From positions 899,188 through 963,187 of the forward strand of contig OZ241842.1 in the NCBI GenBank assembly GCA_965202675.1: a DNA stretch of 64,000 bases, given 5' to 3'. The position numbers and the translations under genes are program-made. Positions 45,469-64,000 of the stretch are shown here, in pieces. The notes beneath the pieces are model-generated. The model saw nothing but the letters and a program-made list of their open reading frames with translations, made no database searches and was not told where the DNA came from. Each line of letters begins with the position of its first letter. Within the stretch, counting starts at the first letter, position 1. This DNA comes from Candidatus Spongiisociaceae bacterium (GTDB lineage Bacteria > Actinomycetota > Acidimicrobiia > Spongiisociales > Spongiisociaceae).

Positions 45469-45513
45469 ATCACGGAATGACAAAAAAATCCGTCAGATCC
45501 GCCGACAAGGGTA

Positions 45514-45542: not shown

Positions 45543-45731
45543 GAAGAAGTTGCAATCACCTCCGGTCCGCAGCCGGCGCAGACCGAGACAGGGATCATCT
45601 TCCGAACGCGACCCGCCGGGGTACTGACCAGGCGCGTCCGGATTCTCGGTGGTGGTGGCGGGGGCCGGGCCCGCGAAGCGGGGCGTGGGGCGGCGTTTTT
45701 CGCGTTCTTGCGGGGTCCGGGGGTCCGGATA

Positions 45732-45824
45732 GGGGCTTGACCAGGGGGTTCGCAGGGAACGAGCAGTGTGGTGGTGAACGGGGGCCAAGAGGTGCGATGG
45801 GGGCTTGACCAGGGGTTCGCAGGG
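45732..45824 (+). repeat. Pair of about 25-bp direct repeats (gggcttgaccaggg(g)gttcgcaggg) spaced 67 bp apart
   Basis: Copies at 45732-45757 and 45799-45824. Each contains a TTGACC motif. Confidence 0.7.
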
Positions 45825-46019
45825 TTCGGGCTTACTCGGTGTCGGGCTTTTCTCTGTGAGACGACCGTGGGTAAAAGGATGCACGCGGATAGGGATGCCT
45901 TCGCCGTTCCGTCGGCGAGGGCAGCGCCCTGCCGCCATGCACATCGGGCAGACCATCCAACAGCTACTTGCGTCGGGACACCTTCCGGCTTCCCATCCGC
46001 GCACGGTCTTACCGCCCGG

Positions 46020-46206: not shown

Positions 46207-49200
46207 ATGGGCGGCATCCTTGAAAGTTGCAAGCCGCGGGCTGATGTACTGACCGGCGGGCTGACGGACAAGCACTTCGCCGCCCAGCTTGATCAGGTGG
46301 TCGCCAACGCTGCGGGCTACGAGGACTACGCCGACGCCGACCGGTTCTTTGACCTGACCTACCCGACTCAGGGTCTGCGCGACCTGCTGGGCGGCACCTT
46401 CGGGCGTATTAACACCAGACGCCCCCCCCCCCCGCGATAGTTTAGATACTTCTAACGCTGAGTACGCTGTTTATCGATATGAAACCAGCTTTGGGGGAGG
46501 CAAGACTCACGGGCTGATCGCCCTTTGGCATCTGGCACGCGGGGCCCGGCCCGGCAACCTGGCTGATTTTGTTGATCCGGGCCTGTTGCCCGAAACCTGC
46601 CGGGCGGCGGCGGTGGTCGGCGACGCCCTCGACCCGATCAACGGGCTGACCTCCGGCGGCATCACCACCTACACGCTGTGGGGTGAGATCGCCCGGCAGC
46701 TCGGCCCCGACGCCTGGGCCCTGATGGAACAGAGCGACGCCGCCCGCACCGGGCCGGGGAAACAGGTGTGGCTGGACATCTTCGGAGCGGGCCCCGCCGT
46801 CGTCATCATCGACGAGCTCGCCCAGTATCTGCGGCGGCTGGGCGCGTCGGGAGACCAAGCCGTACAGAACCTCGCCCGGGCCACCATCGACAGCCTCAAG
46901 GTGCTGTTCGAGGCCGCCACCGCCGCCCCCGCGGTGCGGATCGTCTTCACCCTGGCCACCGGCGTCGACGCCTTCCAGCGGGAGACCGACGAGCTGTCGG
47001 ACGCCCTCGACCAGGTGGCCGGGGAACAGATTCTCAACGAGGCCCGCGACGTCATGGAGCGGCCCAAGGGGGCGGTCGGCAAGCCCGCCGACGACTACGA
47101 GATCGGCTTCATCCTGCGCCGCCGCCTCTTCTCGCACGTCGACGAGACCGCGGCCGGCGCCGCCCTCACCGCCTACAAGGATCTCTACGCCGGGCTGGCC
47201 GAACGGGATGTCCGGGTCGGGACCGCCACCGACGACCCGGCCGCCTACTGCGACCGCATCCGCACCTCCTACCCGTTCCACCCGGCGCTGATCGACTGCC
47301 TCGACAAGCGCATCGGCCCCCTGCCCGGTTTCCAGCGGGCCCGCGGCGCGCTCAAGATGCTGGCCGAGGCGGTGCGGCGGATCTGGAACGACCGCGCCGA
47401 GCTGCCCATCATCAACCTGGGCGACCTGCCCCTCGAAGCCCAGGCGGTGCGAACCTGCATCACCAGCTCCATCGGCCGAGATGCGCTGGACGGACCCGCC
47501 CAGGCCGATTTCGCCGGCGCCAACTCCCACGCCGCCGGAGTGGACAACGAGCGCTGGCCGGACGAACGGGCCGCCTCCCGCGCCTGCCGCGCCGTGTTCT
47601 GCCACAGCGTCGCGGGCGAACCGGCGCCGGGAGCGGCCCTGCCCGACATCCATCTCGGCGTCCTCCGCCCCGGCGAGAACCCCGAAACGGTCGACGAAGC
47701 CCTGGCCGCGGCGAGCCGGGTGGCCTGGCACCTGGTGTCGGACGGGGCGCGCTGGCGGTTCCAGGTCGAACCCAACGCCAACCGCATCATCGCCGCCGAA
47801 ACCCAAAACGTTTCCCAGGCCGACGTAACAGAGGAGCTGAGCCGCCTGGTCGAACGGTTCTTCGCCTCCGACGGCGCCGTCAGAGCCGTCCACCGCCCCG
47901 CCGGACCCGCCGATGTTCCCGACCAGCCCAAGCTGCATCTCGCTGTCCTGGACTGGACCGACACCAGCGTGGCCGCCCGCGACGCCGCCGAGCCGCCGCC
48001 CCCGGTGGCTGAGATCGCCGACTGGGCGGGGGTGTCCGAAACCAACCGCACCCACCGCAATGCGGTCATAGCCCTGGTCGCCGACGCAGACGAGCTGGAG
48101 GCCATGCGCGATCAGGTCCGGTTCGACCTGGCCGCCCGGCGGATCACCCGCGACGACGAACGCATGCAGCAGCTGGGGCCGGAGGTGGTCAAGCGGCTCA
48201 AGAAGCTGGCCGACGCGGCGGGCCTGGAAACCCGGGTGGCGGTGTGCCGCGCCTACCGGCACCTCTACTGGCCCGCCCGCGACCCCCAGAACCACAACCT
48301 GCGCCACTTCGAGCTTCCGCCCGCCCAGCAGGGCAAGACGCCCAAAGGCGCCCAGACCAAGGTCCTGATCGAAACCCTGCGGCGGCACGGCAAGATATCC
48401 GACTCCGCCCCCGCCACCGACCAGCTGGCCCGCGCCGCCGGTTTTCGCCGAAGCGGGGAGACGACCACCGCCGACCTGGCCGAGGTGCCCTGGCGCGACC
48501 CCGGCCAACCGATCCTCCTCGACCCGAGCCTGATCAGAGAGGCCGTCACGGCGGGGATAAGCAACGGCGCCTGGGTCTACTACGACGCCCGGAAAGAGAA
48601 GGCCTACGACGACAGCCGGGCACTCCCCCAGGTGCGGATCGACCGCGACGCCTGGCTCTACAGCCAGGACAAGGCGCGCGACCTCGGCCTGCTGCGCCGA
48701 CCGGTAACGCCCGACCTGATCGCCCGGGCCGTCAACCAAAGGGAAGGCAGGGCGATCACCGGGCCGGCCCTGCGGTCGAAGCTGGAAGACGACATCGGCG
48801 GGGAGCCGACCAAGAAAGAGGTGCTGGAGTCGCTGGCCGCGGGCCGCTCGGCCGCAGACCCGGTAATCGTGATCGACGCAACCGCCGCCGAACCGAAGGC
48901 CCTGACGCCCGCCGCCGTCAGGCGCGCCCGGCTCGACGACCTGGAGATTCTCACCGCCGGCGCAGCGGACCGGCGGGGCATAACGGTTCCCGAGCACGAC
49001 CCGGCTCCGATCGTCAAGGGGCAGGGCGGCGTGGGCATGGCCTTCCAGCAGATCGCCGACCGCGTCGCCGACCTCGGCGTCGACTCGATCACGAGCATCA
49101 CGATCAGAACCGATGCCGACCCCGGCGGCGGAACCCGGAACCTGCGGCTGCTGAGCCTATGCATCCCCCAGCTTCCGAAGTTCGCCTGCCGGGTCAAGGC

Positions 49201-49471
49201 GTCCATCACATCCGAATACCACGGGCTGGCAGGCGGGCTGAAAGTAGACCTGTCGGGCGGCGCCCGCGAATACCAGCAGATCGAGTCCGCCCTGCTCGGC
49301 CTGGCCGATGCGGGCAACAAGACCGCGGGCCACCTGAGCGTCAAGCTGACCCCGGCCGCCCCGATCAGGCACGGCGGCGGCCGATGGACGCAGCTGCACC
49401 AGGTCGTCAGGGCCAACAATCCGGGCCGGATCAGCATCACCGCCCAGCTGGCCCGGCCCGACGGCGGGTGA
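46207..49471 (+). pseudogene. DUF499-family ATPase (BrxC/PglY-like), split by a +1 frameshift inside a C12 homopolymer (phase-variable or OFF state)
   Basis: The 77-aa N-terminal ORF (…PRADVLTGGLTDKHFAAQLDQV…FFDLTYPTQGLRDLL…) ends in the poly-C tract at 46422-46433. Downstream, in frame +1, …YETSFGGGKTHGLIALWHLARG… (Walker A) continues into the 961-aa ORF 46586-49471. Removing one C fuses the frames. Confidence 0.75.
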
Positions 49472-49480
49472 GGCCGGCCG

Positions 49481-49912
49481 GTGGCTGTTCCCCGAATGTC
49501 CGAGCGGCGGTTCGTGATGCGGCTCCACCCCACCCCCGCCGCCGACGACTGGGGGTTCTCGCTGAGCGAAGAAATCGGAGCGGAGTCGACCACCGTGGCG
49601 GCGTTGCCCGCGCACCGGGCCCGGCGGCACCGCCGGGCGGTGATCGAAGCGGTAACGGCGGACGGTTACCCGGCGAGCGCGGTCAGCCCGCGCCGGCGGC
49701 GGCCCTTCAACCTGACCCAGGAGCCGGGAGTCCGCCTGGCCCTAGCGGTGCGGGCAGCGGCACCCGTCCGCAAGGTAGACCGCCGAATGGCCATCACCGA
49801 ACGGCTGAGGACCATGGGCGATGAAGAGGCCCTCTACTGGTATGCCCAGGTGAGCGGCACCGGCGGAGGACGCGCCCTCCGAGCCCTGCGGCTGTTGCTG
49901 GCCACGGAATGA
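49481..49912 (+). CDS. DUF3780-like small protein of the DUF499/DUF1156 cassette
   Basis: About 140 aa. Its position between DUF499 and DUF1156 matches the canonical gene order, and its stop overlaps the next start (ATGA). Confidence 0.5.
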   Translation: MAVPRMSERRFVMRLHPTPAADDWGFSLSEEIGAESTTVAALPAHRARRHRRAVIEAVTADGYPASAVSPRRRRPFNLTQEPGVRLALAVRAAAPVRKVDRRMAITERLRTMGDEEALYWYAQVSGTGGGRALRALRLLLATE

Positions 49913-52875
49913 GCCAGCCGGACCCCGCCCAAGCGGATCCTGTTACCCGCCCGCGGCTGTTCATCGAGGAGAGTTTCCCCGTAAGGGAATTGGGCATCGA
50001 GTCGGTGCGTGAGAGCGCACCGATACCCGGACAGTTTCCCAAACTCAAGACCCTGCACGTTTGGTGGGCAAGACGACCGTTGGTAGCCAGCGCCGGTGCC
50101 ATCCTAGGTAGCCTGCTCCCGGCCTGGACCGAGGAGCTGGCAGAACGATTCGCGGACTATCCCGAACTCGCTACTGCTAAAGATTATCGCGAATGGTTTC
50201 TATGTATGTGTGGCATCTGGGGCGACCCAATCGCGGCCCGAGAGCTTGTCCTAATTGCGAAAGCAACGGGGATACGTAACGCCAAAAATCCATACACGTA
50301 CAAACAGGCCTTCAAGAACATTCCGACTGCAGGCAACCTAGGTATTTTGCACGAATTATTAGAGGATACATGGGGGCAAATACCCTTCGTTTCCGACCCG
50401 ACTGCAGGTGGGGGTTCGATTCCTTTCGAGGCCTTGCGCTACGGGTTGGCTGCTCATGCAAACGACCTTAACCCGGTCGCTGTCAGTGTGCTACGGGCTG
50501 GGGTCGAATTGCCTGCCCGCTATGGAATGGGCCTCAACGCCGACCTAGAAACCTGGGGGCGTCTGTTAGTAGATCGGCTTAACAACCGTCTAGGCCCATT
50601 CTTCCAACCTCATGACGATCAAACTGGTAAAGCCGCCACCTTTATCTTCGCCCGGACAGTAGCCTGCCCGCGCACCGGCAAAACGGTACCTCTGGTGGGA
50701 GACTGGTCGTTGCGCCGGGTCAGGAATCCAGCGGCGGTGCGGCTCATCACCCACCGCGACGGCATCGAGCTCGACGAACCCGAGTACCAGATCGTCGAGG
50801 GCCTAGACATCGACTTTCATCCTAAGGACACGGCCACTTATTCACGCGGCAAGGGCATCTCACCCTGGGATGGACTGGTGATCGACGGCAACTACATACG
50901 GGCCGAAGCCCAGGCCGGACGCATGGGTGAAGTCCTCTACGCAGTGGCCGTCCGCACCCCCAAGGGCCGCGGCTTCCGGGCCCCCACCGAGACCGACCGG
51001 GCCGCCTTGGCCGCCGCCGAAGCAGAGCTGAAACGGTTATTGCCTCAATGGGAACAGGAAGATGTGCTACCGACCGAGGCGGTACCCCATGGCACCAAAA
51101 CAAAAGACTTGCTCAACTACGGGATGACGCGCTGGCGAGATCTGTTCACCCCGCGGCAGCTACTGTTGCACGGTTGCTTCGTGGAAGAATACCACAAGCT
51201 GATCCACGAAGTCCGAGCCGCCATTCCCGAACGCGACCGGGCTGACGCGGTGCTCGCACTGCTAGCGATGGTGCAAGGCAAGGCGGTCAGCTATAACTCG
51301 CGCCAGGCCGGGTGGCATGTCAACCGTGGTCAATCGGCCCCCACCTTTGCCATGCATGCCTTCCCGTTCATGAAAACCTTCGCCGAGTTTGAGGGCGGTC
51401 GAGAGCTATATCCATGGTGTCTCCGACAGTTACTCGACGCCTACTCCGGTATTGCCGATCTGTTACCGGGTACCGCCGACCTGCCTGGCCCCGAAAGCCC
51501 AGTCCTCAGCGGCGAACCCCGAATCGAGGTAACCAAGGGCAACGCCGGATACATGCCCGACATCCCTGCCCGGAGCTTTGAGCTGGTGTGCATAGACCCG
51601 CCCTACTACGATAACGTGATGTACGCAGAGCTGTCCGACTACTTCTACGTGTGGAAAAAACGCACCATCGGCAAGCTCTGGTCCGAGTTCTTCGACGACG
51701 AGCTGACCAACAAACACGACGAGGCGGTCAAAAATAAGACTCGCTTCGCCGCTATGGGACGACGGGCGAACGAGCTTGCAAGCAGCGACTACCAGTTCAA
51801 GATGCAGGCCATCTTCGACGAGTGCCACCGCATCGTGCGCGACGAGGGCGCAATGTGCGTGATGTTCACACACAAGGCGACTGACGCCTGGAACGGTCTG
51901 GGGGCATCGTTGCTGGATGCCGGATTCACAATCGAGGCATCCTGGCCCATGAGCACCGAGTCGCCAGCTTCGTTGCACCAGGCCAAGAAGAACGCGGTCA
52001 AATCGACCATCTTCCTGGTGTGCCGCAAGCGGCCGGACCGGCCCGACGAGGGCGAGCGTATCTACCTTTCCGAAATCGAGGCGGAAGTCCGCGCCGCAAC
52101 GGGAGAGGCCCTGCTCCGCGCCGCCGAGCAGGGTTTGAGTGGGGTAGACCTGCTGCTGTCGACCTACGGCCCAGCCCTTTCGGTGCTGTCGCGCCATTGG
52201 CCGGTCTACTCCGCCGAGACCGACGACGAAGGCCGTTCCCGACGGCTACACCCCGAAGAGGCCCTCGACATCGCCCGGGCCGAAGTTACCCGCCGCCAGC
52301 GCATCCGCCTGGTAGGGCGCGAAGTAGAATTCGACCCGTTTACAGACTTCGCGATCGCCGCCTGGGATACCTTCCGTACCCGGCAGTTTCCCTTCGACGA
52401 CGCCCGCCGTCTAGCCCTGGCCGCGGGCGGACTTGATCTGTCCGAGCTGAAACGAGCCAAGCTCGTCAGGGCCAAAGCGGGCAATGTCACCATGCTCGAA
52501 CCCCGCGAGCGGCTGCGCCGCGACGGAGACGAAGACCTGTCCGGCGTCAACCGAAGCCGTTCCGCCTTTGCGGTCGCGGTCGACGCGGTGCACACCGCCC
52601 TATACATCACCGACCTCGACGGCCTCGGGGCGGCCAAGCACTGGCTCGACCAGCGCGGCCTGACCAACAACTCGCGCTTTACGGCCTGCTTGCAGGCGCT
52701 GGTAAGGGCGATCCCCCGCACCAAGACAAGGGGCGAGTGGAACCTGCCCGAGGCCGAGCTACTCGACGACCTGGTTACCACCTACTTCCCCGACATCGAG
52801 GTCCCACCCGACCCGGGCGAGGACCCCGAGCAGCTAACCCTTGACAACTCGAACGACGATCCATCCGATGGCTGA
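49909..52875 (+). CDS. DUF1156-family N6-adenine DNA methyltransferase
   Basis: N-terminal …LHVWWARRPL… signature and catalytic DPPYYDNVMY motif. 988 aa. Confidence 0.8.
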   Translation: MSQPDPAQADPVTRPRLFIEESFPVRELGIESVRESAPIPGQFPKLKTLHVWWARRPLVASAGAILGSLLPAWTEELAERFADYPELATAKDYREWFLCMCGIWGDPIAARELVLIAKATGIRNAKNPYTYKQAFKNIPTAGNLGILHELLEDTWGQIPFVSDPTAGGGSIPFEALRYGLAAHANDLNPVAVSVLRAGVELPARYGMGLNADLETWGRLLVDRLNNRLGPFFQPHDDQTGKAATFIFARTVACPRTGKTVPLVGDWSLRRVRNPAAVRLITHRDGIELDEPEYQIVEGLDIDFHPKDTATYSRGKGISPWDGLVIDGNYIRAEAQAGRMGEVLYAVAVRTPKGRGFRAPTETDRAALAAAEAELKRLLPQWEQEDVLPTEAVPHGTKTKDLLNYGMTRWRDLFTPRQLLLHGCFVEEYHKLIHEVRAAIPERDRADAVLALLAMVQGKAVSYNSRQAGWHVNRGQSAPTFAMHAFPFMKTFAEFEGGRELYPWCLRQLLDAYSGIADLLPGTADLPGPESPVLSGEPRIEVTKGNAGYMPDIPARSFELVCIDPPYYDNVMYAELSDYFYVWKKRTIGKLWSEFFDDELTNKHDEAVKNKTRFAAMGRRANELASSDYQFKMQAIFDECHRIVRDEGAMCVMFTHKATDAWNGLGASLLDAGFTIEASWPMSTESPASLHQAKKNAVKSTIFLVCRKRPDRPDEGERIYLSEIEAEVRAATGEALLRAAEQGLSGVDLLLSTYGPALSVLSRHWPVYSAETDDEGRSRRLHPEEALDIARAEVTRRQRIRLVGREVEFDPFTDFAIAAWDTFRTRQFPFDDARRLALAAGGLDLSELKRAKLVRAKAGNVTMLEPRERLRRDGDEDLSGVNRSRSAFAVAVDAVHTALYITDLDGLGAAKHWLDQRGLTNNSRFTACLQALVRAIPRTKTRGEWNLPEAELLDDLVTTYFPDIEVPPDPGEDPEQLTLDNSNDDPSDG

Positions 52876-55800
52876 GCGCCCGCCGGGGTGCTTCCAGGGC
52901 CTCGACCTCGCTACCCGCTACTCGGCGGGCGCCAGGGACATGCTGGCCGATTTCTACGTCCCGGTGCTGTCGAGGGCGGTGCGCTACGACCGGGCGGCGG
53001 GCTACTTCGCCTCGTCGTCGTTCTACGCGGCGGCGGCCGGGATGGCCCGGTTCATCGACAACGCAGGCGAGATACGGCTCCTGGTCGGCGCGCAGCTCAC
53101 CGAGGACGACCACAAGGCCCTGCTCGGCAATGTTCCGCTGGACCACATCCTGGCCGAACGCCTGCGGCGGGAAGGGCCGACCGTCGACGACGTGGCCCGG
53201 CGGCGCCTGCAGGTCATCGCCTGGCTGGTGAGAGAAGGGCGGCTGACCATCCGGGTCGGACTGCCCTGCGACGACTTCACCGGGGCGCCGATCCCCGACC
53301 CCGACGATCCGCGGCAACACAAGTACTTCCACATCAAATGGGGCGTGCTCGAAGACGCCGCCGGCGACCGGCTGGCCTTCGACGGCAGCATCAACGAATC
53401 GGCGTCGGGTTGGCAGAGCAACTACGAGTCCTTCAGCGTCTACCAGTCGTGGAGCCGACAGGCCTGGCGGCAATACGGCCGGCCGATCGTCAACGAGTTC
53501 GAACGGCTCTGGCGCGGCGGCGAGGTGCACGGCTGGCGCAGCCTGGCCCTGCCCGAGGTGGAACAGCGCCTGATGGACCTTCTGCCCGCCGAGCCCGGCT
53601 GGGCGCCGCCGGCCCGGGACCCGCTCGAACCCGAGCTGAGCGAGGCCGACCGGGCGGCGATCGCGGAGATCCGGGCCGCCCCCCGCCGCGGCGCCGGCGT
53701 GGGAATGATGTCGAGCGGCATCGAACCCTGGCCCCACCAGCTGGCCATCGCCCGGCGCATCTGCGAGAACCGGCCCCGCAGCTACCTGCTGGCCGACGAG
53801 GTGGGACTGGGCAAGACCATCGAGGCGGGGCTGGTGCTGCGGGAGCTGTGGCTCGGCGGTCAGGTGGAAACGGCGTTGATCCTGGCCCCGGCGTCGATTC
53901 TGATCCAGTGGCAGGAGGAGCTGGCCGAGAAGTTCCTGCTTGAGGTCCCCCGCCTGGACGGGCGCAGGCTGCGTTTCCCCGGCGGGGCGGAGCGGCGTCT
54001 GGAGCGCGGCGAGAACCGTTGGCGGGCGGCGCCGGTGCTGCTGTCGTCTTCGCATCTGGCCCGGATGCGCTCCAACCGCGCCGAGCTGCTCGACGGGCCC
54101 GGCTGGGACCTGGTGTTCGTCGACGAGGCCCACCACGCCCGGCGGCGGGGGTCGAGGCCCTCCGACTCCCCCAACCAGATGCTGGCAACCCTGAAGGCGC
54201 TGGCCGAGGAGAACCTGTTCGGGTCGCTGCTGCTGGCGTCGGCCACCCCCATGCAGCTCCACACGCACGACCTCTGGGACCTGCTGGCGCTGTTCGGCCT
54301 GCCGGACGGCTGGAACCGCAGCGCCGACGCCATGGAGCGCTACTACCGCGCCCTCCAGGAGCCGTTCGGCGACCGCGACTGGGTCCATCTGCAGAAGATG
54401 ATGGCCGGTTACCTGGAGGAAGCGGCGCCCGACCCCTATGTCGTGGAGATGATCGAAGAAGCGGCGGGCTTGGTGGGGGCGGCCCGCATCCGCGGGTTCC
54501 ATGAGAACCCCGGGTTCCGCTCGGGCGGTGTCGAAGAGGAGGCGAGGCCGTCCTGGGACGACTGGCTGCGGGCCAACACGCCGGTGCGCGCCCGGGTGTT
54601 CCGCACCACCCGGGCGACCCTGCGCCGCTACAAGCAGACCGGGGTGCTGGACCCCGATACGGTCATCCCGGAGCGGCGCATCGACGACCGGTTCTACAGC
54701 CTGGGCGGGGCCAAACCCCTCTACGACCGCATCGAGCGCTACATCCTGCGCTACTACGACGCCTACCTGTCCGCCGGGGGCAGGAGCGCGCCGCTCGGCT
54801 TCATCATGACCGTATACAGGCGGCGGCTGACCTCGAGCTTCTACGCCATCCGCAAATCCCTGGAGCGGCGGCGCGAGGTGCTGGCCCGCCGGGGTTCGCT
54901 GCCCGGCCTGCTCGACGAAGACGACCGGTTTGCCGCTGAGGGCGCCGAGGGCCTCGACGACCTAGCGGGGCTCGACAACCTGGAGGCCGGCGACCTCGCC
55001 CTGGCGGGCGGGGACCTGCGGGCGGAGCTGGCCGAGCTGGACGACTTCATCGGCGAGCTGGGGAACCTGCCGCCCGACGAACCCAAGATGGAAGGACTGT
55101 ACGACCTGCTCGACCACAACTTCGGTTCGGGCGCGCACGACACGGCGGTGATCTTCACCCAGTACCGCGACACCCTCGAATACATCCGCCGGCAGCTGCT
55201 CAATATCTACCGGGGCGGGCTGGCCTGCTACTACGGCGGCCGGGGGGAATGCTGGGACGAAGCGTCCGGATCATGGGAGCGGGTCGGCAAGGAAACCATC
55301 AAGGAGCGGTTCCGGCGGGGCGAGGTGAAGATACTGCTGGGCACCGACTCCATGTCGGAGGGCCTCAACCTGCAGACCTGCGGCTGGCTGATCAACTTCG
55401 ACCTGCCCTGGAACTTCACCAGGGTGGAGCAGCGCATCGGTCGGGTGGACCGCATCGGCGGCCAACCGGAGGTGCAGGTCAGCAACTTCTTCTACAAAGG
55501 CACCGTGGAGGAGGACATCTACCGCCGCATCCGCGACAGCCACGACTGGTTCTCCAACGTAATCGGCAACGCCGCCCCGGTGCTGGCCGCCGCCGAGAGC
55601 CTGATATCCGACGCCGCCATGAGGCGCAGCACCACCGAGCAGGCCGCCGTCGAGATCAAAGACCTGATCGCCCGCCTCGACCGGGCAGCCGTCCGCCTCG
55701 AAGACCTCGACTCCGTACCCCGCTTCGACACCGACCTACAACCCCCCATGACCCTCCCCGACCTCCGCCGCCGCCTCCTCTCGATAGCAGCCGTCCAAGA

Positions 55801-55975
55801 CCTCCTAACCCCACCCGACGGCCCCGCCCCCAAAGACATATGGCGCCTAACCCTGAACGGAACCGACCACCACATAACCTTCACCCCCACCCTCTACGAA
55901 CAAACCCCCCGCCTCAACCTCCTCACCTGGGGCAGCCCCCTCCTCACCCGCCTCCTAACCCACCTCGACCCCTGA
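52868..55975 (+). CDS. SNF2/DEAH helicase with N-terminal PLD-like nuclease domain
   Basis: N-terminal …RYDRAAGYFASSSF… (PLD-like), then helicase motif I LLADEVGLGKTIEAG, motif II FVDEAHHAR and a C-terminal helicase domain (…LLGTDSMSEGLNLQ…). The start overlaps the DUF1156 stop by 8 bp. Confidence 0.8.
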   Translation: MAERPPGCFQGLDLATRYSAGARDMLADFYVPVLSRAVRYDRAAGYFASSSFYAAAAGMARFIDNAGEIRLLVGAQLTEDDHKALLGNVPLDHILAERLRREGPTVDDVARRRLQVIAWLVREGRLTIRVGLPCDDFTGAPIPDPDDPRQHKYFHIKWGVLEDAAGDRLAFDGSINESASGWQSNYESFSVYQSWSRQAWRQYGRPIVNEFERLWRGGEVHGWRSLALPEVEQRLMDLLPAEPGWAPPARDPLEPELSEADRAAIAEIRAAPRRGAGVGMMSSGIEPWPHQLAIARRICENRPRSYLLADEVGLGKTIEAGLVLRELWLGGQVETALILAPASILIQWQEELAEKFLLEVPRLDGRRLRFPGGAERRLERGENRWRAAPVLLSSSHLARMRSNRAELLDGPGWDLVFVDEAHHARRRGSRPSDSPNQMLATLKALAEENLFGSLLLASATPMQLHTHDLWDLLALFGLPDGWNRSADAMERYYRALQEPFGDRDWVHLQKMMAGYLEEAAPDPYVVEMIEEAAGLVGAARIRGFHENPGFRSGGVEEEARPSWDDWLRANTPVRARVFRTTRATLRRYKQTGVLDPDTVIPERRIDDRFYSLGGAKPLYDRIERYILRYYDAYLSAGGRSAPLGFIMTVYRRRLTSSFYAIRKSLERRREVLARRGSLPGLLDEDDRFAAEGAEGLDDLAGLDNLEAGDLALAGGDLRAELAELDDFIGELGNLPPDEPKMEGLYDLLDHNFGSGAHDTAVIFTQYRDTLEYIRRQLLNIYRGGLACYYGGRGECWDEASGSWERVGKETIKERFRRGEVKILLGTDSMSEGLNLQTCGWLINFDLPWNFTRVEQRIGRVDRIGGQPEVQVSNFFYKGTVEEDIYRRIRDSHDWFSNVIGNAAPVLAAAESLISDAAMRRSTTEQAAVEIKDLIARLDRAAVRLEDLDSVPRFDTDLQPPMTLPDLRRRLLSIAAVQDLLTPPDGPAPKDIWRLTLNGTDHHITFTPTLYEQTPRLNLLTWGSPLLTRLLTHLDP

Positions 55976-56200
55976 CCCCCCGATTTACCGGCGCGCCTGC
56001 GCAGCCCCTTCAAATCCAGATCGGGCGGGCAGATCCGGCGACGCGTGGACAACCGCGCCGGACCCGTGTTAGCATAGAAAGATGACCGCCATCACTGACA
56101 CCGCGGAAGCATCTACCGGCCTTGCCGTACCGGATCAAGGCTACGAAGGCCCGCCCCTAGAAGAAATCAAGAGCGTTCTACCGTTCAAGGTAGCAAAGCT

Positions 56201-56952
56201 AACCGTCTTATAGAAGAGAAAGGAAAATGAATGGCCATAACCACCAATGTAATCACACGCACTTTCCGAATTAAATATGGAGTACAAACTGGAACTTGCT
56301 TTACCATTGATATTGATGAACGTCAATATATTGTAACGGCTAAACATATCGTAGCAGATATAAACCCCAACGACAATATTCAAATTCTACATGAAGGTAA
56401 ATGGAAGGAATTGACAACAAACATTGTTTGGATACCTAACTCAGATGAAGATATTGCGATTCTAGCTCCTGAAATTCGAATCTCACCTCCCTTTTTATTA
56501 ATTCCTAGCATGGAAAGGATGTATTTGGGTCAAGATTTGTATTTTTGTGGGTTTCCTTTCGGGTTGAACACTGAAGTCGGGACACTAAATCGTGATTTTC
56601 CTGTCCCTTTCATTAAGAAAGGAATCGTTTCAGCTGTTGAAACTAGAGAGAACTGTTCAGCCCGAATCTACATTGACGGCCATAATAATCCCGGATTTTC
56701 TGGAGGCCCTGTTATTTTTACTGATCCGAAAACGAATGAACTCAAAGTCGCAGGAGTTATTAGTGGCTACTACCCAAATTATGAACCAGTTCTTAAAAAC
56801 AATAATCGCACCGAATTAATGAGCATACAAAACACTGGTATAGTGATCGCATATGCTCTGGGAAGAGCAGTAACCTACATTGAAGAACACCCTACGGGTG
56901 TACCTGCAAAACCTAGCCTAGAGGATAGCGGATAGGTATTAACCGTCTTATA
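56201..56952 (+). mobile_element. AT-rich gene cassette bounded by 13-bp perfect direct repeats TAACCGTCTTATA
   Basis: Repeats at 56201-56213 and 56940-56952 enclose only the protease gene. GC is about 36%. Confidence 0.55.
56231..56935 (+). CDS. Trypsin-like (S1/chymotrypsin-fold) serine protease
   Basis: Catalytic-triad context TAKHIV (His), DEDIAIL (Asp) and GFSGGPV (Ser). Strong RBS aggaaaatga. Confidence 0.65.
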   Translation: MAITTNVITRTFRIKYGVQTGTCFTIDIDERQYIVTAKHIVADINPNDNIQILHEGKWKELTTNIVWIPNSDEDIAILAPEIRISPPFLLIPSMERMYLGQDLYFCGFPFGLNTEVGTLNRDFPVPFIKKGIVSAVETRENCSARIYIDGHNNPGFSGGPVIFTDPKTNELKVAGVISGYYPNYEPVLKNNNRTELMSIQNTGIVIAYALGRAVTYIEEHPTGVPAKPSLEDSG

Positions 56953-57110
56953 TACTCATGATGCACCACACAAAGGCGACTTTATTTAACCCGATATTCA
57001 GAAGCGGTTCCCTGAGGCACAGGGCGTAATATTCGTGTTTCACAAGGCACCCGGCTTGCCCGACTAGATTTCGGCAGACGGTATTCAGTAGTATGGTAAG
57101 GTGAGGCATC

Positions 57111-57374
57111 ATGACAGCAACATCCCGACAAGTCTTGCCGTGGACGAAGCACGGTTCAGAAGACTGCCCCTACGAGGACGAGAACGCTTGCGTCGACGCG
57201 TGGACCGTAGCTCATCGGGAGCAACTAGACCGATTCACTGAGAAAGTGCTCGCCGATCTGGCCGCCGAGTCGCCCGAAGATTATACGCTCAACAGCGAAG
57301 GACGAACGCCACGCCCGCCCGGTCTCCGGGCCGCGGGGTCGCGGCCGTTGAAGGCGGTACCGAGGGCTAACTGA
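57111..57374 (+). CDS. Hypothetical protein (87 aa)
   Basis: Good RBS (aaggtgagg). No homology call. Its C-terminus runs into the coxM-derived repeat. Confidence 0.3.
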   Translation: MTATSRQVLPWTKHGSEDCPYEDENACVDAWTVAHREQLDRFTEKVLADLAAESPEDYTLNSEGRTPRPPGLRAAGSRPLKAVPRAN

Positions 57375-57655
57375 GCAGCGGTGGCGAGGGCGGCTTTTAA
57401 CGGCCCGGGCGGTGTACACCTTGGCCAGGTGGGTCTTTGTACTCAACCGAGCCGTAGAGGTCCTCGAGCACCTTTATGCCGTCCACGGCGTGGGAGGCCG
57501 CGGCTGATACGGCGGTGTCGGAGCCGTCCGTGCCTACCAGGGCGGCGACCGCCGCATCGGCCCGCGGTCGGGCGGTTGCCCACTCCGGTTACGGCCGTGG
57601 CGGCGCTGATATACCCGTTGGACCTGGTTATTGAGGCGGCTACCCCGGCCGCGGC
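57338..57655 (-). repeat. Degenerate copy of the coxM 3' end (attL/attR-like direct repeat, copy A)
   Basis: About 92% identical to 61870-62188, with indels that break the coxM frame (the fragment translates as …THLAKVYTARAVK…). Confidence 0.8.
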
Positions 57656-57797
57656 AGGTGAGCCGCTTGGTACGGACCCTCCACCTCTAACACGCCGTTT
57701 CAAGGCTCATGCCAAGCCTCGATTCCACGATCAAGTACCGAAGATTATGCGAGGAGAGATCCTAGTGAGGCACATGACTGCCTACTATTCCTCAAAA

Positions 57798-58925
57798 CTA
57801 TAAGGGGTACATAGTAGCCACGATTTCTCTTACAACGAGGTGAGAAATTCGATTGCGCCCGTTACCACCCATAGTACTGAACCTACTTGAAGGAACCGTA
57901 TGCTCCCGTACTCGATACCATTGCTGAGCTAGATTGACCAGTTTTTCTCCGTTCATTCCATTAGAAGCTGTTCCAGAGGGAAAGGTGAGAACTACACGGC
58001 AACCGTTTTGGGATAAAGTATAAAGTAGTTCCTTCATTACCTTCAGAGCTTGAGATTTAATACTGTAGGCTGAACTAGGTCTTTCCGAAATGGGAGGGTA
58101 TCGCCCGACTCCTGACACAGATCCGCACTTACCCCGAGCTAATGTTTCTAGTACATGATAGAATCGACTGTAATGGACTGATGAATAAGGCGGATCAACA
58201 AACACGACGTCGTCTTCGTTAAGCGTACGAGCTAGTACGTTAGCGTCCGCCATATCCGCTGTACCTTTCTGCAGAGCATGTCGACTAGCAAGATCAGGAA
58301 GCTTATCCATGATGTAAGAAATAGGGTCGATCCGCCAACTATCTGCTATATGTGGTAAAGCCGAACGAGTTGGCTGGAATGGCTGAGCTGTATGCCCGGG
58401 AGAAGCAGCACAACGAGATGCGGCTAAGATAATCAGAGCCTGACAAAAACGCTTAAGCTGAGAACTATGCCGTGGCAAATTTTCAAGGAGCGAATCAAAA
58501 ACCATAGCTTGCCGTGGTGAAAAATAATGACCGCCATATGCCGTCCAAATCAAACCACCAGTTTGAGAACTACACAACCCTCTTGCTTCTAACACAGTTT
58601 CTATTTTTTCAACATCCTCTACCGAAAGGGACTGGAAAAGGGGACTACGTGCAAGAGCAAGTTTGACTGGGTTTAGCCAGCCTTCTACAACACGAGACTG
58701 ATCAAGAGGCCTATCACGCTCAATTACAGCTCCAGCTAGAACAACAGCATAGCGCTGTAAATCAGCGGCCAAAACCGATAAGCCGCGCGCCTGTGCCACA
58801 TACCAGGATACTCGCCCTGTTCCCGAAAATAAGTCTACGAACCTCTTCGCTGTGTCAGCCTCGGCTAGCACTATTTCACCCAGCCCATTCTCAAGCATTG
58901 CCAACTTGGACCCCATATACTTCAT
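57798..58925 (-). CDS. D12-class (Dam-like) N6-adenine DNA methyltransferase
   Basis: N-terminal KYMGSK (AdoMet motif I-like) and catalytic VFVDPPYSSVHY. 375 aa, GC about 45%. Confidence 0.7.
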   Translation of the reverse strand: MKYMGSKLAMLENGLGEIVLAEADTAKRFVDLFSGTGRVSWYVAQARGLSVLAADLQRYAVVLAGAVIERDRPLDQSRVVEGWLNPVKLALARSPLFQSLSVEDVEKIETVLEARGLCSSQTGGLIWTAYGGHYFSPRQAMVFDSLLENLPRHSSQLKRFCQALIILAASRCAASPGHTAQPFQPTRSALPHIADSWRIDPISYIMDKLPDLASRHALQKGTADMADANVLARTLNEDDVVFVDPPYSSVHYSRFYHVLETLARGKCGSVSGVGRYPPISERPSSAYSIKSQALKVMKELLYTLSQNGCRVVLTFPSGTASNGMNGEKLVNLAQQWYRVREHTVPSSRFSTMGGNGRNRISHLVVREIVATMYPL

Positions 58926-60262
58926 GATACTAGCCCCATAATAGCGAACCTTCCTAGATTCGTCGTCTCGTGGAGAGAGCGTGCACAGTTGACAAAAAAT
59001 CCTTGGATAGACTGATCATCAGAATCAATCCATTCTTCAATATCTTCTAATGCGCTAGCTACATCCGCCCACAGATCTGTAATATTTTCAGGTCTATTAA
59101 TATCTTTCCATAGTCCTATTTCCCACCCTCTTATACTCCACCAAAATTCTAACGTCTGAAAGTCTATGTTTGTAGCTCTCATAAAATCACTTGCTGCTCC
59201 GGTAGCTATATGAAGCAGAAAAAAGGCACGACTTAATAGTGGACGAGGATCACCATAATAATCACCTCTACCTGATGATAATCTAATAAGTTTTGGTACC
59301 TTTTGATCTAAAATTTTACCTAAAATAAACCGTTCTACTTCTTTGTATAAGTAACCATCTTCAAGGACGGCTGTAAGCATAGTGTCCACTTGTCTTTTCA
59401 ATTCGTCAGGGTGATCTTGTAACGTAGGCATAGAATTAAAAATATTCTCTACTGTCTGACACAAAAAGTATAGATCCAAGATATCAATACCTCCCTGTGT
59501 AGTAGAGGGCTCAAGTTTACGAACTATATCAGAAACATATTTGATAGGTTTCATAAAATTTCGATTTCTGTAACTAGAAATATAAAGAGGTCCATAGCTA
59601 GCGGCATTTCTTAAGAATCGATCATTAGTCATCCGCTTTAGATCAACACCAAAGTCGTACAACATCTTCGAGGCATTGATAAGGGCCGGGCCTTCTTCCC
59701 CTACACATGGCATTTCGTTAATCCACATCGTCAAAGGTATCGAGCGAGGACGAACTATTCGACCTAATAGAACACCAGCATCTCTTGATTTCAGCCAATG
59801 TTCTAAATATAACCAGATCGCATGATGAGTTGATCGTCGTTTATCAGATATTAAATGAGCATTGCCTGCTACGTCTATTATGCAATGATGTTGATCAAAT
59901 ACACCAATACCTTGACTTGCCAAAAGCGACATAGTTGCGCGCATCTCTGCGTAATAACCTAGATGAATCGCTATTGGCTCTCCGCGTACCTGGGCATAAA
60001 GAGCTTGTCCTAGGTACTCCCAACTATCAATGAGATGAAAGAGTATTGATACAGCTATGTATTCTCTTAGATCATGTGAATTCAGGTTGCCCTTTTTATC
60101 TTCCTTCTTAATACTTTTTACAAGGTTATTATAGTAGGTATTGTTCCTATTAAGCCAACGGTCATTGCCAAAATTGTTAAGCAAAGATGGCGCGGATTTT
60201 TGAATACCATCTGGCGAAGCCAAGTTTAAATATTCCTTTTCTTGTGAACTCAATTTATACAT
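58922..60262 (-). CDS. Hypothetical protein, 446 aa, no recognisable motifs
   Basis: Overlaps the neighbouring genes by 4 bp upstream and 8 bp downstream, consistent with an operon. Low GC. Confidence 0.6.
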   Translation of the reverse strand: MYKLSSQEKEYLNLASPDGIQKSAPSLLNNFGNDRWLNRNNTYYNNLVKSIKKEDKKGNLNSHDLREYIAVSILFHLIDSWEYLGQALYAQVRGEPIAIHLGYYAEMRATMSLLASQGIGVFDQHHCIIDVAGNAHLISDKRRSTHHAIWLYLEHWLKSRDAGVLLGRIVRPRSIPLTMWINEMPCVGEEGPALINASKMLYDFGVDLKRMTNDRFLRNAASYGPLYISSYRNRNFMKPIKYVSDIVRKLEPSTTQGGIDILDLYFLCQTVENIFNSMPTLQDHPDELKRQVDTMLTAVLEDGYLYKEVERFILGKILDQKVPKLIRLSSGRGDYYGDPRPLLSRAFFLLHIATGAASDFMRATNIDFQTLEFWWSIRGWEIGLWKDINRPENITDLWADVASALEDIEEWIDSDDQSIQGFFVNCARSLHETTNLGRFAIMGLVS

Positions 60263-61754
60263 TATAATTCAGTTTCTGAGCAACATCTTGTGCTATTACC
60301 GCTAATCTGCTCTCGGAATTGCTCAAATAACGGAGAAGATCCTCTCGAAGTTCTTTATATCCTGTACCACCTCGAAACCGTGCCTTAGCCTGGCGTTGCT
60401 GTTCGGATAAACCAGTAGCCTTTGACGAACGCCAATCGTATCCGGTAAGACCCTTAGCTATATCACCAACATACTCACCAACTGGTTGTTCTTCTAGGGA
60501 TACCAAGGCACTGGATACATCCTCCTCAGAAGTAGCGGAGCCTGGATCGCAAATCCAACTGCGAAGCTCTTGTTCGTCGGCCTGAATAAAGCATAGGTCG
60601 TTCAAAGTGTAAAGAAACCCGCGCACTCCCATATCCGAGTTGAGCATAGTTTCCTCACCTTCAAAAGCTGGATCAGGTGAAATATAATTGTCCTTTCGCA
60701 AATTTCTTATCCAGTCATATTCGGATTTAGCTATTTCTTCTTTTAATTTATTCCATGCATATATTAGAAAGGCTGCTTGTTGTGATCGAGACCATGGAAG
60801 CACTGTTTTGTTCTCTCCTACTGGTGCTCCAAATAAGCCACCTACTTGAACGCGCGGGCCTTCCCAACTCTTAACAAAAGTTGTCTGGAGATTACGAACC
60901 CAGGAATTTTGGGTCACCATTTTTCTTTGCTGACCTAACATATCTATACGTTGATGCCATGGGCTCTTAGGATGAGCCCAGAGAGCTTCGGTAAGCTCCT
61001 GCGACCGAGTAGCCTTATATATAGTGTCATCAAAACGTTCCAGCCAATCCTCTGTCCTAAGGAGCGGATACAGATCAAAAGCAAGACTCGAATTAATCCG
61101 CTTTGGTTTTATATTGATAGTATAGAAAAGATAAGCTTGCCAACTCCGATCCAATCCATAGAAGGCAACAACAGGTAACTCATATCCAGTAAGCTGATCA
61201 GCGCTCTCTTCAAAGGCCCACAACCTGTGCTGACCATCAATAACCTCAAGCGGAGGTAATGTTTCGGATAACTCCCAATTTGAATCGCCTGATTCTGGCA
61301 ATTCAACAAGTGCAGAGCCGTTTTCTTTAAGTTCTACATTTATCTGATCGTCTAGATGAACGGAGCGACCACGATGATCAGTATCTCCAGGCGACAAGAT
61401 ATTGACAATCACTGCCGTCGGTAGCCAACCCGGTTTCATGAGATCAGTATAATTCGAGCTTTCTCTTTTTGTTTGGCTCAGGCCAGACCATGGGAACCCG
61501 TGTTGTATATAATTAGCAATCTCCTCGGATCGCTTTACTTCGTGACCTCTCTGTATCCCAAGATCAAGTGCCCGAGCACCGGTTGTGGAACGGCGTTGTA
61601 TGCCGGTGAGACGGCGCAACTCAGAAGCATCAAGCGAAAAGAGTAGGAACCAAGGTTTCGGCTTCCGCCGAAACTGTTCGTCGTCAAATTTCACCCTATC
61701 CCATTCACTGAGCCACTGATTCACGATCAGAGCAGGGATTTTCTTTTTTGGCAT
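60255..61754 (-). CDS. DGQHR-domain protein (DndB-like)
   Basis: …PLEVIDGQHRLWAFEE… signature motif. 499 aa, first gene of the three-gene operon, with an RBS aggag upstream. Confidence 0.75.
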   Translation of the reverse strand: MPKKKIPALIVNQWLSEWDRVKFDDEQFRRKPKPWFLLFSLDASELRRLTGIQRRSTTGARALDLGIQRGHEVKRSEEIANYIQHGFPWSGLSQTKRESSNYTDLMKPGWLPTAVIVNILSPGDTDHRGRSVHLDDQINVELKENGSALVELPESGDSNWELSETLPPLEVIDGQHRLWAFEESADQLTGYELPVVAFYGLDRSWQAYLFYTINIKPKRINSSLAFDLYPLLRTEDWLERFDDTIYKATRSQELTEALWAHPKSPWHQRIDMLGQQRKMVTQNSWVRNLQTTFVKSWEGPRVQVGGLFGAPVGENKTVLPWSRSQQAAFLIYAWNKLKEEIAKSEYDWIRNLRKDNYISPDPAFEGEETMLNSDMGVRGFLYTLNDLCFIQADEQELRSWICDPGSATSEEDVSSALVSLEEQPVGEYVGDIAKGLTGYDWRSSKATGLSEQQRQAKARFRGGTGYKELREDLLRYLSNSESRLAVIAQDVAQKLNYNV

Positions 61755-61869
61755 GTAACTCCTGATTCTTCACGTTGATTGAATCTGAGGCCGAACCCTC
61801 CAGCTTTTGCGACCTGGGGTATTCATTCTGGCCACATTAACAGTCCTCCACCCGCCTGGATGGGTTGCA

Positions 61870-62188
61870 GGCGGCGGTCAAGGCGGTACCGGGGGCTAAC
61901 CGGCGGCGGCGAGGGCGGCTTTGACGGCCCTGGCGGTGTACACCTTGGCCAGGTGGGTCTTGTACTCGACCGAGCCATAGAGGTCCTCGAGCACTTCTAT
62001 GCCGTCCACGGCGTGGGAGGCCGCGGCTTGTACGGCGGCGTCGGAGCCGTCCGTGCCTACCAGGGCGGCGGCCGCCGCGTCGGCGCGCGTCGGGCGGTTG
62101 CCCACTCCGGTTACGGCCACCGTGGCGGCGCTGATATACCCGTTGGACCTGGTTACCGAGGCGGCTACCCCGGCCACGGCGTAGTCGG
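61870..62188 (-). repeat. coxM 3'-end repeat, copy B (part of intact coxM)
   Basis: Direct-repeat partner of 57338-57655. Confidence 0.8.
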
Positions 62189-62774: not shown

Positions 62775-64000
62775 CTACGCCTTGGCGTCCTGGATGGCCT
62801 GCCAGACCCGTCTGGGCCGGAGCGGCATGTCGATGTGGGTCACGCCGAGCGGTTCGAGCGCGTCGACCACCGCGTTGACCACCGTCTGGGCGGCGCCGAT
62901 GGTGCCCGCCTCGCCGATGCCCTTCACGCCGAGCGGGTTTACATCGGTGGGCGTAACCGTGCGCTCCAGCTCGAAGGACGGCAGGTCGGCGGCGGTGGGC
63001 AGGATGTAGTCCACCAGGGAGGCGGACAGCAGGTTCCCGTCCCCGTCGTACACCGCGTCCTCGAACATGGCCTGGCCGACCCCCTGGGCGATGCCCCCGT
63101 GGATCTGGCCGTCCACGATCATCGGGCTGATCACGTTGCCGCAGTCGTCCATGCCGATGTACCGCAGGAGCCGCACGTCCCCGGTGTCGGGGTCAACCTC
63201 GACCATGGCGATGTGGGCGCCGAACGGCCAGGTGGCGTTGCCGGGGCTGAAGACGGCGTGCGCCTCCAGGCCGCCCTCCAGGCCCTCGGGGAGCAGGTGC
63301 GGCTGGTAGGCGGTCTTGGAGATGTCCTCCCAGCTCACGGAGCTGTCGGGGGTGCCGACCACATGGGCCCCGCCGCCGCCGAACTCGATGTCCTCCTCGG
63401 ATGCCTCGAGCAGGTGGGCGGCGATCCGGGCGGCCTTGGCCCTTACCTTGGCGGTCGCCTCGTAGCAGGCGGCCCCGTCGACCGCCGCCGAGCGGGACCC
63501 GAAGGTGCCGACGCTGGGCGGCGCCTCCTCGGTGTCGCCGTGGATGACGCGGATGCGCTCCACGTCCATGCCGAGGCCGTCGCCCACTATCTGCGCCCAG
63601 GTGGTCTGGTGGCCCTGGCCGGACGGCCCGGTGCCGATGGACACGGTGGCCGACCCGTCGGGGTGGATGCGCACCAGGCTGGAGCCGTTGAAGGCCGACG
63701 GCATCTGGTACTCGGCCCACGAGAATCCGAGGTCCACCAGCGGAGAGGGGCCGAAGCCGCACACCTCCACGTAGGTGGCCAGGCCGACCCCTACGCAGCG
63801 CCCCTCGGCGCGGGCGGCGTCCCGCTCGGCCAGCAGGCCCGTCCAGCCGGCCGACTCCAGGGCGGCGTCGAGGTTCGACTCGTAGTCGCCGGTGTCCATG
63901 GGGAACCCCATGGGCGACACCGCCCCCGGGAAGTCGGAGGCGGGGATGTAGTTGCGCCGGCGCACCTCGGCCGGGTCCATCCCTATCTCCCTGGCGTACA
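62775..64000 (-). CDS. coxL: Molybdopterin-binding large subunit, CoxL/XdhA-like, C-terminal part (N-terminus beyond window end)
   Basis: …GMDDCGNVISPMIVDGQIHGGIAQGVGQA… matches the aldehyde-oxidase/xanthine-dehydrogenase molybdopterin-binding C-terminal domain. Confidence 0.8.
   Translation of the reverse strand, partial: YAREIGMDPAEVRRRNYIPASDFPGAVSPMGFPMDTGDYESNLDAALESAGWTGLLAERDAARAEGRCVGVGLATYVEVCGFGPSPLVDLGFSWAEYQMPSAFNGSSLVRIHPDGSATVSIGTGPSGQGHQTTWAQIVGDGLGMDVERIRVIHGDTEEAPPSVGTFGSRSAAVDGAACYEATAKVRAKAARIAAHLLEASEEDIEFGGGGAHVVGTPDSSVSWEDISKTAYQPHLLPEGLEGGLEAHAVFSPGNATWPFGAHIAMVEVDPDTGDVRLLRYIGMDDCGNVISPMIVDGQIHGGIAQGVGQAMFEDAVYDGDGNLLSASLVDYILPTAADLPSFELERTVTPTDVNPLGVKGIGEAGTIGAAQTVVNAVVDALEPLGVTHIDMPLRPRRVWQAIQDAKA

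Follow-up and report, generated by a model that had tools for sequence, protein, structure and literature searches.

A low-G+C DGQHR/methyltransferase cassette between two copies of a coxM 3′ end: an old insertion scar at the edge of a predicted defence island in an uncultivated sponge-associated lineage

How does a cassette of three genes come to lie between two copies of the end of a gene that is itself still intact? This question is raised by a 64-kb stretch of DNA from a Candidatus Spongiisociaceae bacterium (hereafter the window), in which genes for a D12/Dam-like methyltransferase, a 446-aa protein and a DGQHR-domain protein stand between a coxM-like gene and a second, broken copy of its 3′ end. 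A preliminary description, made from the letters of the window, had explained the arrangement as an integrative element that targeted the 3′ end of coxM and left no recognisable integrase. Here we compare the locus with conspecific metagenome contigs and find that the cassette is an insertion relative to an empty site, and that the broken copy is the displaced native end of coxM. The repeat and the cassette are an old insertion scar and not an active element. The route that we favour, with moderate confidence, is capture by host recombination anchored in the coxM tail.

The long direct repeat around the operon was recovered without difficulty. By blastn, 57341-57655 (copy A) matches 61871-62180 (copy B) at 90.25% identity with gaps over 318 alignment columns (E = 9.8e-119). 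A repeat search of the window placed the blocks in register, 4522-4529 bp apart, and MAFFT aligned 57340-57655 with 61868-62180. Homology of the outer 9-10 bp is marginal, and the secure unit (57351-57655 against 61880-62180) consists of 283 bp of coding sequence with the stop codon, and of the next 16 bp downstream, which we name T1. The earlier estimate of about 290 bp of coxM and about 14 bp downstream was right for the gene and roughly right for the rest. In the coding part the two copies differ by 17 substitutions, and copy A has five indels (-3, +1, +1, +1 and +4) that destroy the coxM frame, as had been noted. A third copy of coxM was not found in the window by blastn, and the far end of the ~17-kb island described below is unmarked by one.

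The gene to which copy B belongs is predicted to encode a medium subunit of the CoxM/XDH family, because it contains FAD_binding_5 and CO_deh_flav_C domains. We use coxM only in this family sense, since the linked CoxL of a conspecific contig (L085, 7610-9988) has the form-II-like motif AYRGAGR; with a CoxL motif like that of form-II carbon monoxide dehydrogenases, it may be doubted that the operon encodes a true enzyme of this kind. Open reading frame (ORF) and domain calls confirmed that exactly three genes, all on the minus strand, lie between the copies. Their region has a G+C content of 0.34-0.50, against 0.70-0.75 in the cox genes.

The evidence that carries our interpretation comes from conspecific metagenome contigs, which were reached by searching with the DGQHR and CoxM proteins and looking up the contigs of the matches; their cox genes and those of the window are 96-99% identical. 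At least five haplotypes occur at the locus, with alternative contents that include Hma-like, GmrSD_N, HEPN, PIN/antitoxin, VapBC and DGQHR/methyltransferase genes. In the empty type (type E; L087, L088 and L089) coxM is followed by a convergent 71-aa ORF that overlaps the coxM stop, and then by HEPN_RiboL-PSP, GmrSD_N and helicase genes. This is the empty site by which, it had been suggested, an insertion could be recognised, and in it coxM directly abuts the small ORF. Copy A and its left flank (window 57655 to 57140) are colinear with it (L087, 10583 to 11056), and copy A runs from T1 into the adjoining T2 without interruption, as the empty site does. Therefore, copy A is the displaced native 3′ end of coxM, still joined to the small ORF, and the DGQHR cassette is an insertion. 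The duplicated fragment without the island, the pattern named beforehand as speaking against integration, was not seen in any contig examined. The idea that incoming DNA supplied a replacement 3′ end and left the displaced copy to decay also fits: copy A is the old end, and copy B keeps coxM intact.

A second strain has the window type of arrangement (type W). In L081 the cassette is 94% identical to that of the window, and both the spacer beyond Dam and the spacer/copy A junction are the same. The copy A remnant of L081 (14060-14273) is far more decayed, with 16 differences and a 9-bp duplication in ~60 bp; after ~70-90 bp of it follows sequence that also stands at the end of contig L012 and is probably a repeat or insertion sequence. 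The shared junction bears on whether the arrangement could be an assembly artefact, with strain variants of coxM collapsed or chimerically joined in a metagenome-assembled genome. Many haplotypes do co-exist in the source population, and the short-read contigs L081, L082 and L083 end at or near the repeat. However, L081 is an independent assembly from another sample, the exact middle protein of the window is recorded on a 3.0-Mb contig, and copy A is frameshifted with a flank colinear with a real empty site. We consider an artefact barely credible.

In type D (L085 and L086) the same cassette family is present, with a cox-to-Dam stretch ~83-85% identical to the window and the same proximal junction. 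Here the Dam stop and ~22 bp are joined directly to the small-ORF region, with neither spacer nor copy A; L085 has an 11-bp tandem at the junction. Duplication is therefore not an obligatory product of the insertion of this cassette. The existence of such a configuration would also allow the reverse order of events, in which the cassette arrived first and cleanly, and copy A with its spacer was added later by ectopic insertion or duplication at a Dam/small-ORF hot spot, or by tandem duplication and partial deletion. The interval between Dam and the small ORF is variable (a VapBC-like insert in L097, the 11-bp tandem in L085), and copies A and B share local variants. Yet copy A passes into T1-T2 and the small ORF exactly as coxM does in the empty site, a junction that an ectopic fragment would have had to recreate by chance, and the tandem route needs a second copy of the cassette and its precise removal. 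This order of events is improbable.

Other occupants of the locus show further boundaries. L090 and L091 (type N) contain a different cassette of ~930 bp (ORF255, G+C ~0.48, no family), which starts right after the coxM stop. Beyond it come at least 75 bp of a decayed coxM 3′ remnant, and T1, T2 and the small ORF in that order. Further alleles of the DGQHR cassette (DGQHR protein 81% and partner protein 54% identical in amino acids) occur in L082, L083, L084 and L093, whose contigs end before the distal junction. The proximal junction, 61879/61880, is identical in the window, L081, L082/L083, L085/L086 and L093; it is common to all DGQHR alleles compared and possibly reflects a single ancestry, while L090/L091 differ in start and repeat extent. 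In a related clade (L097, L178 and L179) the cassette and, before it, at least 100 bp of decayed coxM tail are found behind UGDH and epimerase genes with no cox operon. A simple local deletion as the origin of this setting is not supported, as in 80 relatives the 10 kb around coxM contained neither the UGDH nor the epimerase genes. In the L097 clade a VapBC-like pair stands between Dam and the small ORF.

The distal side of the insertion is formed by the 120-bp spacer, which is 88% identical between the window and L081 and is not present in L085, L086 or L097. At 57655/57656 coxM-internal sequence is joined to this unrelated sequence, and clear microhomology is not visible. Neither the rest of the window nor 180 loci contained sequence similar to the spacer or to either flank, and the spacer aligned locally to the small-ORF/T2 regions no better than shuffled sequence did. 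No Rfam family was detected in 55.9-62.3 kb, and promoter and terminator scans returned chance-level results. The G+C-rich stretch next to copy A contains a GGCCGCG/CGCGGCC hairpin, with a fold no better than that of shuffled sequence. A hairpin across the insertion point of the empty site (GCCCCGGA...UUCGGGGC) was set aside on the same ground, and we make no claim of structure targeting. The coordinates of all features are collected in Table 1.

Table 1. Features of the coxM locus and its surroundings. Coordinates are those of the window unless a contig is named.
Feature	Coordinates	Strand	Basis or remark
Hma-like system: DUF499, DUF7680, DUF1156 methylase, PLD-SNF2 helicase	46586-55975	+	domain and PADLOC scans
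Second swap slot	56084-56956	+	first ~30 codons of other strains' GmrSD_N gene (56084-56175), then protease cassette
Small conserved ORF, 87 aa (71-77 aa elsewhere), convergent native coxM neighbour	57111-57374	+	homologues in L085-L091 and L097
G+C-rich intergenic stretch, T1 to small-ORF homology	57300-57350	.	~40 bp longer than in empty site
Copy A, displaced frameshifted coxM 3′ end	57351-57655	-	283-bp-equivalent coding; colinear with empty-site contig L087 including left flank
T1 in copy A, 16-bp downstream segment	57351-57366	-	alignment to copy B
Copy A stop equivalent	57367-57369	-	alignment to copy B
120-bp spacer	57656-57775	.	abuts coxM-internal sequence at novel junction 57655/57656
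Cassette tail 3′ of Dam stop	57776-57797	.	common to L085/L086 alleles
D12-class (Dam-like) N6-adenine DNA methyltransferase	57798-58925	-	DPPY motif, domain scan
Conserved partner protein, 446 aa, all-alpha	58922-60262	-	no family match, no PDB fold match
DGQHR-domain protein, 499 aa (DndB/DpdB-like, ParB superfamily)	60255-61754	-	domain scan
Cassette leader, T1 to DGQHR start	61755-61879	-	proximal cassette boundary 61879/61880
Copy B, functional coxM 3′ end and T1	61880-62180	-	repeat search, MAFFT, blastn
T1 in copy B	61880-61895	-	coxM stop codon at 61896-61898
Intact coxM-like gene, predicted FAD-binding medium subunit, 288 aa	61896-62762	-	FAD_binding_5 and CO_deh_flav_C domains
coxL-like large subunit, C-terminal part	62775-63980	-	MoCoBD_2 domain, upstream of coxM; gene runs on past listed ORF
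coxM 3′ remnants in non-cox context	L097 2683-2845; L178 2335-2386; L179 1271-1322		precede cassette

Where did the replacement end come from, and when? The differences between A and B were polarised against outgroup coxM sequences of 16 other genomes. The A branch accounts for about a dozen substitutions and for every one of the five indels, the coxM branch for only 4-5 changes (62085, 62030, 61995, 61977 and 61931). The substitutions do not cluster at third codon positions (7/3/7 by codon position). Moreover, A and B share the states of their strain group against the E and D strains at 62139/62137/62136 (GAT), 62124, 62007 (G), 61965 (G) and 61888 (T, in T1). Because the copies share these variants and most of their differences are decay on the A branch, the replacement 3′ end appears to come from the same population and not from a foreign host. 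The simplest reading of the alignment is that A and B were nearly identical at the event and that A has since decayed, with no foreign allele imported. The event was not recent, since L081 shares the junction and the substitutions between A and B (~6%) exceed those among conspecific cox genes (1-4%). Gene conversion of A by B in the lineage of the window is possible. Polymorphism across coxL-coxM has no sharp haplotype break at 62180, and the boundary between donor and recipient is not mappable from it.

We then consider whether a recombinase was involved. Pfam, PADLOC and NCBIfam scans identified no integrase, recombinase or resolvase in the cassette or in the ORFs of 42-64 kb, and the same scans found no tyrosine or serine recombinase among the selected window ORFs outside this interval. 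The window gave no tblastn match to three tyrosine integrases from DGQHR islets, and gene calls of the conspecific contigs contain no recombinase gene in the sequenced flanks (+/-10 kb). The preliminary remark that no integrase, recombinase or excisionase ORF is visible thus holds for tyrosine and serine recombinases, and the search of the neighbourhood that it proposed ended empty-handed.

Nevertheless, the scar could be the remnant of a site-specific integrative element whose attP carried the coxM 3′ end and whose tyrosine or serine recombinase was later deleted or acted in trans, as in a cis-mobilisable element (CIME). L085-type strains would then have lost attR, that is copy A and the spacer, by deletion. 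The order of intact gene, cargo and displaced end is exactly that of islands that target gene 3′ ends. The same operon is found in integrase islets (L111, L126 and L141), and the truncated integrase of L141 shows that such genes decay. The unrelated ORF255 cassette of L090/L091 also lies between coxM and a coxM remnant, the remnant beside the cassette in the non-cox L097, L178 and L179 is what an attP-borne fragment would give, and the spacer could be left over from an arm of the element. However, neither a recombinase gene nor a detectable pseudogene of one occurs in the window or in any of ~10 conspecific contigs, and any integrase must have been removed without trace from gaps of only 125 bp (T1 to DGQHR) and 142 bp (after Dam). 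The two haplotypes with a duplication do not share their boundaries, and a distal repeat is missing altogether from L085. Moreover, A and B share population-specific variants, and their differences look like decay, not like a travelling allele. We regard such an element as possible but on balance doubtful. Of the proposal of an integrative element at a gene 3′ end, the insertion with its displaced native end and empty site was upheld, whereas the involvement of an integrase could not be shown.

Our preferred reading is homology-anchored capture by host recombination, Campbell-like or akin to homology-facilitated illegitimate recombination (HFIR), for which no element-encoded recombinase is needed. 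A horizontally acquired, low-G+C defence cassette of 4.2 kb would have entered the locus directly downstream of coxM, on DNA in which the cassette stood beside a coxM 3′ end brought along with it (the last ~285 bp) and the 16 bp downstream. Such DNA would carry a coxM tail because coxM and the cassette were already neighbours in the donor, in the order seen in L085-type strains. Through recombination in the tail, presumably dependent on RecA, the resident coxM would have received the incoming copy as its new end and remained functional (copy B). The route would have been either a single crossover with a circularised fragment (Campbell) or anchored recombination in which the far end was joined illegitimately; the illegitimate join would be the junction of the spacer with coxM-internal sequence. 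The resident 3′ end would have been pushed to the far side of the cassette, where it stayed joined to the small ORF and decays as copy A.

Several observations are consistent with this capture. Any circular or anchored DNA with a coxM tail beside the cassette, recombining in that tail, gives exactly this topology. Between the window and the conspecific contigs the cox anchor is 96-99% identical, against 62-94% for the cassette and ~70-80% for the distal flank, and homology on the far side is therefore poor. The supposed donor configuration of coxM, T1 and cassette exists in the population, since the same proximal junction occurs in all cassette alleles including L085/L086 (with L082/L083 and L093). 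For capture by host recombination, the uninterrupted T1-T2 of copy A is what is expected of an end derived from the recipient. The extent of the duplication differs: in the window it is ~301-305 bp and the cassette begins 16 bp past the stop, whereas in L090/L091 it is at least 75 bp and a different cassette begins at the stop. Lastly, L097, L178 and L179 show that a block of coxM 3′ fragment and cassette can sit in a non-cox context, which fits incoming DNA that brings the coxM 3′ end with it.

Other points weigh against host-mediated capture. The spacer has no source in the window or the 180 loci. Classical HFIR usually deletes and does not duplicate recipient DNA, as de Vries and Wackernagel and Prudhomme et al. 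are said to have found in 2002, and a circular intermediate is for this reason an added assumption. The L085 and window types are not polarised, and L085 could be a deletion derivative. An integrase origin of the cassette family is plausible because the same operon is cargo of tyrosine-integrase islets (L111, L126 and L141) and also occurs on predicted prophages. The two coxM-duplicated haplotypes together with the L097 remnant could mark a recurrent site-specific target. The decay of copy A in L081 exceeds that in the window and requires an extra event such as gene conversion. Finally, DNA uptake and recombination would have to operate in this uncultivated lineage.

A bolder version of host-mediated capture, which we put forward tentatively and think rather unlikely, is that the coxM tail acts as a portable homology arm, by which defence cassettes pass from strain to strain in this symbiont population, with fragments of coxM 3′ end and cassette homing to coxM via host recombination without a dedicated recombinase. 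Each capture would then leave a displaced tail, as in the window and L081, L090/L091 and the L097 remnant. If true, the locus would show in nature, and in a form open to dissection, how defence hot spots without recombinases acquire their contents; and the three genes of the cargo would make up a widespread methylase-linked defence system, hitherto uncharacterised, with no solved structure related to the fold of its middle protein.

The scar itself is of a known kind, such as islands commonly leave when they insert at the 3′ end of a gene. Islands that target tRNA and tmRNA genes, and ICESt1 and ICESt3 in the 3′ end of fda, belong to this kind, and their recombinase-less derivatives are the CIMEs; this work, in Streptococcus thermophilus, is reportedly that of Pavlovic, Burrus and Guedon. 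As with those elements, the target gene is intact, the direct repeats derive from its 3′ end, sister strains have an empty site and the cargo is a putative defence module; relatives of the cargo are in some cases part of integrase islets flanked by 43-46-bp repeats, which in two islets lie at tRNA 3′ ends. Unlike them, the present locus has no recombinase gene or remnant, and its repeat is ~300 bp long and decaying instead of a short conserved core. Moreover, the distal boundary varies between haplotypes, and one haplotype has no distal repeat.

Defence-island hot spots flanked by core genes have been described for the pan-genomes of E. coli and Pseudomonas. The cox locus resembles them in its variable interval between conserved genes, its predicted defence systems and its several conspecific occupants. 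It differs in its uncultivated acidimicrobial host, in having an edge inside the 3′ end of the flanking gene and in the duplicated tails left there. Displacement anchored by homology that leaves orphaned 3′ pieces has been proposed for the effector-immunity arrays of type VI secretion systems (T6SS), as in Vibrio cholerae, and for Rhs C-terminal loci, with the recombination mechanism given only in general terms (PMC5361080). Like such HFIR or sequential-displacement arrays, the cox locus has a conserved upstream anchor (coxL/coxM, 96-99%), non-homologous cargo added downstream, a resident 3′ piece orphaned distally, no integrase, and alternative contents at one locus within a species. In contrast to the T6SS and Rhs arrays, the displaced piece comes from a housekeeping-type gene, of which it is the tail, and is neither a toxin tip nor an immunity gene; each haplotype shows only one displacement, and the duplication needs a Campbell-type or equivalent topology.

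The value of the locus lies in its context. Four states are found in one uncultivated sponge-symbiont population, namely an empty site, a cassette without duplication, a cassette with a ~300-bp duplication, and a different cassette with an older remnant, and none of the four contains a recombinase gene. They bear on how defence systems enter core-gene-flanked hot spots without mobile-element genes.

What is the cargo? The DGQHR domain matches TIGR03187 at 68 bits, above the cut-off, whereas the protein falls below the cut-offs of the DndB-type families (PF14072, 27.2 against 29.1; DGQHR_dnd_1, 60 against 450; DpdB, 29 against 300). It shares with DndB of the dnd phosphorothioation systems and DpdB of the dpd 7-deazaguanine systems a DGQHR/ParB-like domain and linkage to a DNA-modifying enzyme. 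Unlike in those systems, no dnd or dpd genes are present as neighbours, and the partners are a Dam-like methylase and an all-alpha protein. PADLOC has no system model for the trio, and a nuclease domain was not identified in the cassette proteins. The AlphaFold2 model of the partner protein is confident and all-alpha (pLDDT 86, pTM 0.89) and matched no PDB fold, nor did its sequence match any in the PDB; a structure search with the model of the DGQHR protein (pLDDT 77) gave no informative PDB match.

DGQHR proteins of the ~500-aa type number in the thousands in a protein search. In 80 metagenome loci that contain one, the partner gene is adjacent in almost all and a Dam-like methylase is present in most. 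The three-gene operon, for which loci L095, L096, L099-L177 and L180-L187 were compared with the window, is also found on the Zymomonas plasmid pZZM405, on a Rhizobium plasmid and in eight predicted viral contigs (predicted prophages). In L111, L126 and L141 it is cargo of tyrosine-integrase islets with 43-46-bp flanking repeats, which lie at tRNA 3′ ends in two of them (tRNA-Thr in L111, tRNA-Pro in L141); the integrase of the L141 islet is truncated. L130, with a 407-bp flanking repeat, was rejected as a parallel case, as its repeat holds an IS21-like transposase fragment. DGQHR/partner/Dam is thus a conserved, unstudied three-gene module of plasmids, prophages and integrase islets. By inference only, it would be a methylation-linked, restriction-modification-like defence module, and we flag it as a candidate for defence against phages.

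How far does the insertion extend? The preliminary description treated the unit as a self-contained element, and this was not borne out: the DGQHR cassette is the first slot, at the proximal edge, of a ~17-kb defence island that is absent behind coxM in other genera. Its coxM relatives place the window in the Acidimicrobiia, close to sponge-associated metagenome-assembled genomes of Ca. Spongiisociaceae. In other genera (L005-7) a homologue of the window gene at 43374-44624 (DUF4143 ATPase) follows within ~170 bp of coxM, and in L010 a homologue of 40844-42175 is located 1.4 kb after coxM. Because homologues of window genes stand so close behind coxM there, the whole interval ~44.7-61.9 kb is lineage-specific, a hypervariable island of ~17 kb with predicted defence genes. 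It contains toxin-antitoxin genes, an Hma-like system, a low-GC trypsin-like protease, the small ORF, copy A and the DGQHR cassette.

The Hma-like system is 89-93% identical in sister strains and has toxin-antitoxin genes at its flank at 42.3-45.5 kb (FitA-like, Phd/YefM, and a MazE-like antitoxin with PIN). In the second swap slot the low-GC protease cassette (56231-56935), with weak LmuA and RT-protease-like PADLOC matches, takes the place of the HEPN_RiboL-PSP and GmrSD pair. The small ORF, whose 3′ end overlaps T1 and the stop region of copy A, adjoins coxM or the cassette in L085-L091 and L097, and is always linked to the HEPN/GmrSD or protease slot. Its core (...WTKHSSEDCPYEDENACVDAW..REQLDRFTEK...) has no family match, and its C-terminal tail is different in every haplotype. 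At the far end of the island, ~550 bp (45468-46018) are 85% identical, in inverted orientation, to sequence upstream of coxS in L085, L087 and L090 (6464-6958); the window ends before coxS, and the similarity may reflect inverted repeats around cox and the island or the trace of a rearrangement.

The only transposase genes among the window ORFs scanned, an IS481-family gene (12060-13103) and a DDE fragment within 18289-20591 (with a Fic-domain gene), lie more than 37 kb from the cassette. Elsewhere in the window, a tRNA-Pro(GGG) gene (1034-1106) is followed by a low-GC Eco57I-like restriction-modification/methylase gene (2328-5261) and a second DUF4143 ATPase gene (5365-6696), and 1034-6696 may be another island at a tRNA; the DGQHR islet of L141 likewise lies at tRNA-Pro(GGG), with a DUF4143 gene.

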